From sequence record PZ452612.1: DNA of 64,000 nucleotides, one strand, 5' to 3'. Positions 42,052 through 42,507 of the stretch are shown here, in pieces. This stretch comes from a phage. A program made the translations under genes and the position numbers. Each line of letters begins with the position of its first letter. Position 1 is the first letter of the stretch. The notes under the pieces were generated by a model. That model worked only from the letters and a program-made list of their open reading frames with translations. It did no database searches and was not told the DNA's origin.

Positions 42052-42507
42052 TTATTTTAGATCTTCGGCCCAATCTAGTTTTAAGGGTTCTTTGTATTCA
42101 CGGTCGAGAATAACCGGAATAGCTACATCACCACTGAATGATAGTTGGCCAACGTTATATGATAACGTTATATGTGGAGTGTAGTCGTCGAAATCATGAG
42201 TAGCACCTAAAGCTCGTGCATACTGATGACGACATCTAAGATATTCAGAATCAAGAACTAAAACCAGTACAGCGCCGTCGTCAGTTTTCCATACCTCAAA
42301 GTGTCCTGATTCGGCAACAGAATAACTACCACTAGATGTAGTATATGGTATGTTTACACGTGAATAACAAATTGTTGAATGAAGCTTTTCACGTGGTACT
42401 GGATTAGGAATTCTTAATTTGCGCTGGAGGTCTTCCAGCGCATCAAGTGTTAATTCCGAAAATTTAGCTGCGACGTAGAGGCCTTGTGAAAAGTCCTCAA
42501 ATTTCAT
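42052..42507 (-). CDS. 57B: 2H phosphoesterase (Acb1/gp57B-like anti-CBASS cyclic-oligonucleotide phosphodiesterase)
   Basis: Two H-x-T/S motifs (HSTICY and HITLSY) about 80 aa apart in a 151 aa ORF directly upstream of 57A. Confidence 0.7.

Follow-up and report, generated by a model that had tools for sequence, protein, structure and literature searches.

The phage DNA analysed here, a stretch of 64,000 nucleotides referred to below as the window, contains an open reading frame (ORF) that almost certainly encodes the Mosigvirus orthologue of Acb1, the product of gene 57B of phage T4 and a small metal-independent 2H phosphoesterase made during infection. The original prediction had read this ORF as an Acb1-type 2H phosphoesterase, and the Pfam assignment, the identity to the T4 and FBB1 proteins, the catalytic tetrad and base-contact residues, the predicted fold and the synteny all agree with it. 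The Acb1 reading is right yet already known, as the family had been described and the phage genome deposited before; it is not new because the ORF is a close orthologue of a published protein that has been validated both biochemically and genetically. Across 2.3 kb around the ORF, the window and Escherichia coli O157 typing phage 6 (KP869104 / NC_041864.1) share 100% identity, and the taxonomy of NC_041864.1 is Straboviridae, Tevenvirinae, Mosigvirus. Comparison of the first 50 kb of the window with NC_041864.1 revealed a single mismatch, at position 29769, inside a gene annotated as a 328-amino-acid (aa) 'nucleotidyltransferase' (28929..29915), whose product matches the Pfam family RlaP (RNA repair pathway DNA polymerase beta family; E=6.4e-13).

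By using profile and similarity searches, we found the ORF product to match the Pfam family PF23474 ("Anti-CBASS protein Acb1") with an E-value of 1.3e-58 and a score of 197.3 bits (cutoff 27), residues 8-149 being aligned with the full profile (positions 1-144 of 144). No family model was matched in an NCBIfam scan with the same protein. In a sequence search against the PDB, the crystallised Acb1 from Erwinia phage FBB1 ranked first (7T26, apo, and 7T27, in complex with 3'3'-cGAMP; E=1.1e-58), and alignment with T4 57B (NP_049750.1) showed 129 identical residues out of 151 (85%), 22 substitutions and no gaps. By tblastn, homologues turned up in 1470 phage records, and in 1462 the match spans 80% of the query or more; the hosts of these phages include Escherichia, Klebsiella, Shigella, Acinetobacter, Vibrio and Aeromonas. 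When a large protein collection was searched, PF23474 was present on all 85 matches bearing a Pfam annotation, and many of the orthologues in UniRef are titled 'Anti-CBASS protein Acb1'.

The prediction of a 151-aa protein with the motifs HSTI and HITL proved exact, since an ORF of this length lies at precisely the coordinates given and contains both motifs. Its translation includes five histidines, of which just two fall within an HxT/S motif (H43-S44-T45-I46 and H112-I113-T114-L115). Such a motif pair was rejected as stand-alone evidence, as two or more HxT/S motifs occurred in 13.6% of shuffles of the 151-aa protein and in 10 of the 78 window ORFs of at least 100 aa. Because the pair is weak by itself, we relied on homology, and it is through homology that the motifs rise above chance, as they occupy invariant columns in the alignments of 33 and 53 homologues.

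In T4 Acb1, the catalytic tetrad consists of H44, T46, H113 and T115, while Y12, W74, F107 and W147 stack on the bases and E141 contacts the adenine N6 (PMC9117128). With a numbering offset of -1, these residues correspond to H43, T45, H112, T114, Y11, W73, F106, W146 and E140 of the ORF product, all of which are identical to those of T4, and the 22 substitutions that separate it from T4 57B all lie outside the named functional residues. Both His motifs, on whose conservation the original prediction had been made to depend, are conserved, the four tetrad positions being invariant among the 33 and among the 53 homologues, down to 30% identity. Y11 is invariant in the set of 33 and nearly invariant in the set of 53, and E140 and W146 are nearly invariant in both. 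At the nucleotide level, acb1 and T4 57B are 75% identical, with a dS of about 1.8, a dN of 0.13 and a dN/dS of 0.07, a ratio that points to strong purifying selection on the acb1 product.

The fold was predicted with AlphaFold2, using the 53-sequence alignment as input. The model has a mean pLDDT of 90 and a pTM of 0.83, and confidence is low at residues 1-4 and 148-151 only. The pLDDT below 50 at residues 148-151 would be consistent with a mobile C-terminal lid as in FBB1 Acb1. In a Foldseek search of the PDB, the top matches were 7T26 (TM 0.86/0.94, rmsd 0.8 Å, 133 columns) and 7T27, with rmsd values ranging from 0.8 to 1.7 Å; the Acb1-type phosphodiesterase of a Burkholderia phage ranked next (9Q2Y/9Q2G), and then came classical 2H enzymes, namely LigT, Thermus TT0787, Usb1, CPDase, MHV ns2 and rotavirus VP3. 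Because Acb1 structures ranked first and other 2H enzymes followed, the 2H phosphoesterase assignment is also structurally supported, as far as a predicted model allows, and the model supports a compact 2H fold with a C-terminal lid.

Among the characterized systems, T4 Acb1 is the closest to the ORF product: the identity of 85% extends over the full length, the tetrad and base contacts are the same, the gene occupies the same slot between 57A and ipI, and 57B is probably translationally coupled to 57A in both phages. Differences are few, the Mosigvirus protein (151 aa) lacking one N-terminal residue compared with T4 Acb1 (152 aa); T4 belongs to Tequatrovirus, whereas the window phage is a Mosigvirus (RB69-like). 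FBB1 Acb1 is more distant (about 61-63% identity, E=1e-58), and both proteins have the HxT/HxT tetrad and the C-terminal Trp lid, but FBB1 has F at W73 and Y at F106, both of them aromatic. The 'Anti-CBASS protein Acb1' of Burkholderia phage BCSR5 (9Q2G, 9Q2Y) shares the 2H fold and the HxT motifs (TM about 0.57-0.69), but at 165 aa it is longer, its identity is only about 16-18%, its sequence matches the ORF product weakly (E=0.007), and it represents a distant branch rather than an orthologue. Finally, E. coli LigT, Usb1, plant CPDase, coronavirus ns2 and the rotavirus VP3 2',5'-PDE share the superfamily fold and its two-His logic, but their sequences fall below the family thresholds, their rmsd values are of 5-9 Å and their substrates are different. 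Among these enzymes, ns2 and VP3 likewise break down a nucleotide signal of host immunity, 2'-5' oligoadenylate.

The T4 protein, the founder of the family, was purified by tracking a 3'3'-cGAMP-degrading activity and was named Acb1 (Hobbs et al., Nature 2022, PMC9117128). Hydrolysis of A-containing cyclic di- and trinucleotides without metal and phage rescue from CBASS have been demonstrated for T4 Acb1 and nine further diverse homologues, and all nine homologues cleaved both 3'3'-cGAMP and cAAA (PMC9117128). The H44A substitution abolishes the activity of T4 Acb1 and the H44A/H113A mutant is catalytically dead; a T4 Δacb1 phage was constructed and plated on CBASS-carrying E. coli, and plasmid-expressed T4 Acb1 was used against a type III CBASS operon challenged with phage P1 (PMC9117128). 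The lid of FBB1 Acb1 consists of residues 145-152 and covers the ligand on closing, W147 stacking on a base (PMC9117128). By analogy with this published work on T4 and FBB1, the Mosigvirus orthologue would have the same substrate range, chemistry and anti-CBASS phenotype. Its U-shaped pocket would bind cyclic di- and trinucleotide CBASS signals with at least one adenosine (3'3'-cGAMP, cUA, cAAA and others), the bases stacking on Y11, W73, F106 and W146 and the adenine N6 being read by E140, and the C-terminal lid would then shut over the bound ligand. The adenosine would be strained in such a way that its 2'-OH attacks the 3'-5' phosphodiester located 3' of it, with H43/T45 and H112/T114 providing acid-base catalysis without a metal, and the reaction would yield a linear product with a 3'-phosphate, a 2',3'-cyclic phosphate being the intermediate. 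Removal of the second messenger would leave CBASS effectors (Cap4, Cap5, CapV and others) inactive, so that abortive infection would not take place. A literature search combining Acb1 with RB69 or Mosigvirus yielded no paper testing a Mosigvirus Acb1.

A different function is suggested by the databases, as the RefSeq product name of the ORF (YP_009593143.1, NC_041864.1 85801..86256) is 'RNA ligase', taken from PHROG 755, which would make the protein a LigT-type 2'-5' RNA ligase or an RNA 2',3'-cyclic phosphodiesterase working on the ends of RNA, for instance during tRNA repair. A weak Pfam match to PF13563 (2_5_RNA_ligase2, E=0.013) and the distant structural matches to E. coli LigT and other 2H enzymes (TM about 0.45-0.59) go in the same direction. 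However, the PF13563 match scores 15.9 bits, below the cutoff of 27, and covers residues 70-131 only, against 197 bits for the Acb1 profile, and neither of the LigT/2'-5' RNA ligase families (PF13563, PF02834) reached its curated threshold. Judged from the predicted model, the rmsd is 7-9 Å for LigT versus 0.8 Å for Acb1, and the T4 orthologue, 85% identical, is by experiment a cyclic-oligonucleotide phosphodiesterase (PMC9117128). We thus rejected the ligase reading, sub-threshold in Pfam score and structurally distant, and consider that it has a very slight probability of being correct. The name is an inherited superfamily label rather than a tested function; T4 57B likewise bears it in NC_000866, though it is the experimentally defined Acb1. 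'RNA ligase' is a misnomer, an annotation error that is spreading through many phage records.

It may also be asked whether the protein, while belonging to the Acb1 family, has shifted its specificity towards other cyclic oligonucleotides or 2'-5'-linked species, or has become a non-catalytic binder. The 22 substitutions relative to T4 Acb1 leave room for such a change, and the existence of remote Acb1-like phosphodiesterases in phages, with the lid either open or closed (9Q2G/9Q2Y), shows that the family diversifies. On the other hand, the protein retains the T4 residue at each of the four catalytic and five named base-contact positions, the dN/dS of 0.07 argues for strong purifying selection and hence against a shift, and the nine homologues found active on 3'3'-cGAMP and cAAA were themselves diverse (PMC9117128). 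Because the functional residues are kept and selection is strongly purifying, a shifted or inactive protein is unsupported and its probability seems extremely small. A related proposal is that the substrate range of the Mosigvirus enzyme is measurably unlike that of T4 Acb1, for instance because the enzyme attacks signals that T4 Acb1 spares or has another interaction with decoy-nucleotide systems such as Panoptes. With 22 residues changed relative to T4, the enzyme could have other quantitative preferences among substrates, but nothing in the sequence points to an altered range, and we regard this proposal as highly unlikely. If it were true, Acb1 and the Acb2-like sponge encoded 6 kb away would cover a different set of host signals.

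The gene 57B position that had been proposed for the ORF is confirmed by synteny, the minus-strand order 1 – 57A – 57B – ipI being the same in the window and in T4 (table 1). The ORF had also been described as lying upstream of 57A, which holds in plus-strand coordinates only; because all four genes are on the minus strand, with respect to transcription it is directly downstream of 57A. The TAA stop codon of 57A and the ATG of acb1 share one base (TAATG). On the other side of acb1 is the anti-restriction gene ipI, whose product shares 88% identity with T4 IPI, and the adjacency of Acb1 and ipI has already been noted as an anti-defence cluster (PMC9117128).

Table 1. Positions in the window of acb1, its sub-features, its neighbours and the Acb2/Tad1-type gene.
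Feature	Coordinates	Strand	Basis
acb1 (gene 57B orthologue) CDS	42052..42507	-	ATG start, 151 aa + stop codon; ORF listing
First catalytic HxT, H43-S44-T45 (= T4 H44/T46)	42373..42381	-	codons CAT TCA ACA
Second catalytic HxT, H112-I113-T114 (= T4 H113/T115)	42166..42174	-	codons CAT ATA ACG
Putative C-terminal lid segment, residues 144-151 including W146 (= T4 W147)	42055..42078	-	FBB1 lid, W146 conservation, low pLDDT
Gene 1 (dNMP kinase), 5' of 57A	42742..43476	-	Pfam PF21448 DNMK, E=3.3e-96
Gene 57A (tail fibre assembly chaperone), directly 5' of acb1	42507..42737	-	Pfam PF17594 GP57, E=5.6e-22
ipI (internal protein I, nuclease inhibitor), directly 3' of acb1	41687..41974	-	Pfam PF11634 IPI_T4, E=1.3e-50
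Acb2/Tad1-type sponge homologue, 81 aa	35675..35920	-	Pfam PF24729 'Acb2/Tad1 hairpin domain', E=9.4e-18, 64.6 bits vs cutoff 27

A scan with consensus promoters returned sites that were no commoner than in shuffled sequences (13 versus 10.9 ± 3.3) and detected no convincing promoter directly ahead of acb1. The best σ70-like sites fall in the spacer that separates 57B from ipI, or farther downstream, where they precede ipI and the two small ORFs that come next, and the sole nearby T4 late-promoter core (TATAAATA, 43092..43099) is inside gene 1; across the whole window, the count of this core equals that expected by chance. A dedicated acb1 promoter was accordingly rejected, the scan being at shuffle level and the better sites not being ahead of 57B. 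Because no promoter was found ahead of acb1, we infer that the gene is expressed via upstream read-through and translational coupling with 57A.

Just past ipI, on the minus strand, lies an ORF of 87 aa (41358..41621), preceded by a σ70-like site (TTTACA-17-TATAGT, 41682..41654). Its product matches PHROG 13302 (unknown function) only, and a Pfam search with it gave no match. The sequence starts with MKTYKEFIAE, and eight of these ten residues are common to IPI; this decapeptide resembles the capsid-targeting sequence of T4 internal proteins, and the ORF may encode an extra internal protein that is packaged and injected. Beyond ipI, the two phages differ in that T4 carries a tRNA cluster, whereas no tRNA gene was detected by ARAGORN in the whole window (1..64000). 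The T4 interval between e and ipI (70908..72530) contains eight tRNAs, rnaC/rnaD and segB; its counterpart in the window (about 39100..41680) contains small ORFs, either hypothetical or bearing a membrane-protein annotation, and a 228-aa protein of the same interval (40304..40990) had no match in a Pfam search.

Acb1 may not be the only protein acting against CBASS in this phage. The ORF encoding the Acb2/Tad1-type homologue (table 1) is located at the T4 vs.4 position and is named hypothetical in RefSeq. Given its match to PF24729, the phage apparently carries, like T4, two independent anti-CBASS devices, the Acb1 nuclease and an Acb2-like sponge. Four other minus-strand ORFs of this region (34310..34852, 34861..35319, 36503..36811 and 36808..37347) bear the RefSeq note 'Endoribonuclease RegB T4-bacteriophage encoded', and may be paralogues or reflect loose annotation. 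Elsewhere in the window, genes for a phosphoheptose isomerase, a bifunctional GlmU and a KpsF arabinose-5-phosphate isomerase (1155..4043, minus strand) adjoin the DNA polymerase gene, a sugar-nucleotide cluster that is presumably linked to the arabinosyl-hydroxymethylcytosine modification found in the DNA of RB69-like phages.

The discovery value of these results is small, Acb1 having been found, structurally solved and genetically validated in 2022. Their practical value is one of annotation, as the name 'RNA ligase' in RefSeq and PHROG 755 hides an anti-defence gene. Moreover, the pair formed by Acb1 and the apparent Acb2-like sponge bears on the prediction of host range against CBASS-bearing E. 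coli O157 strains, for instance in phage typing and in biocontrol.
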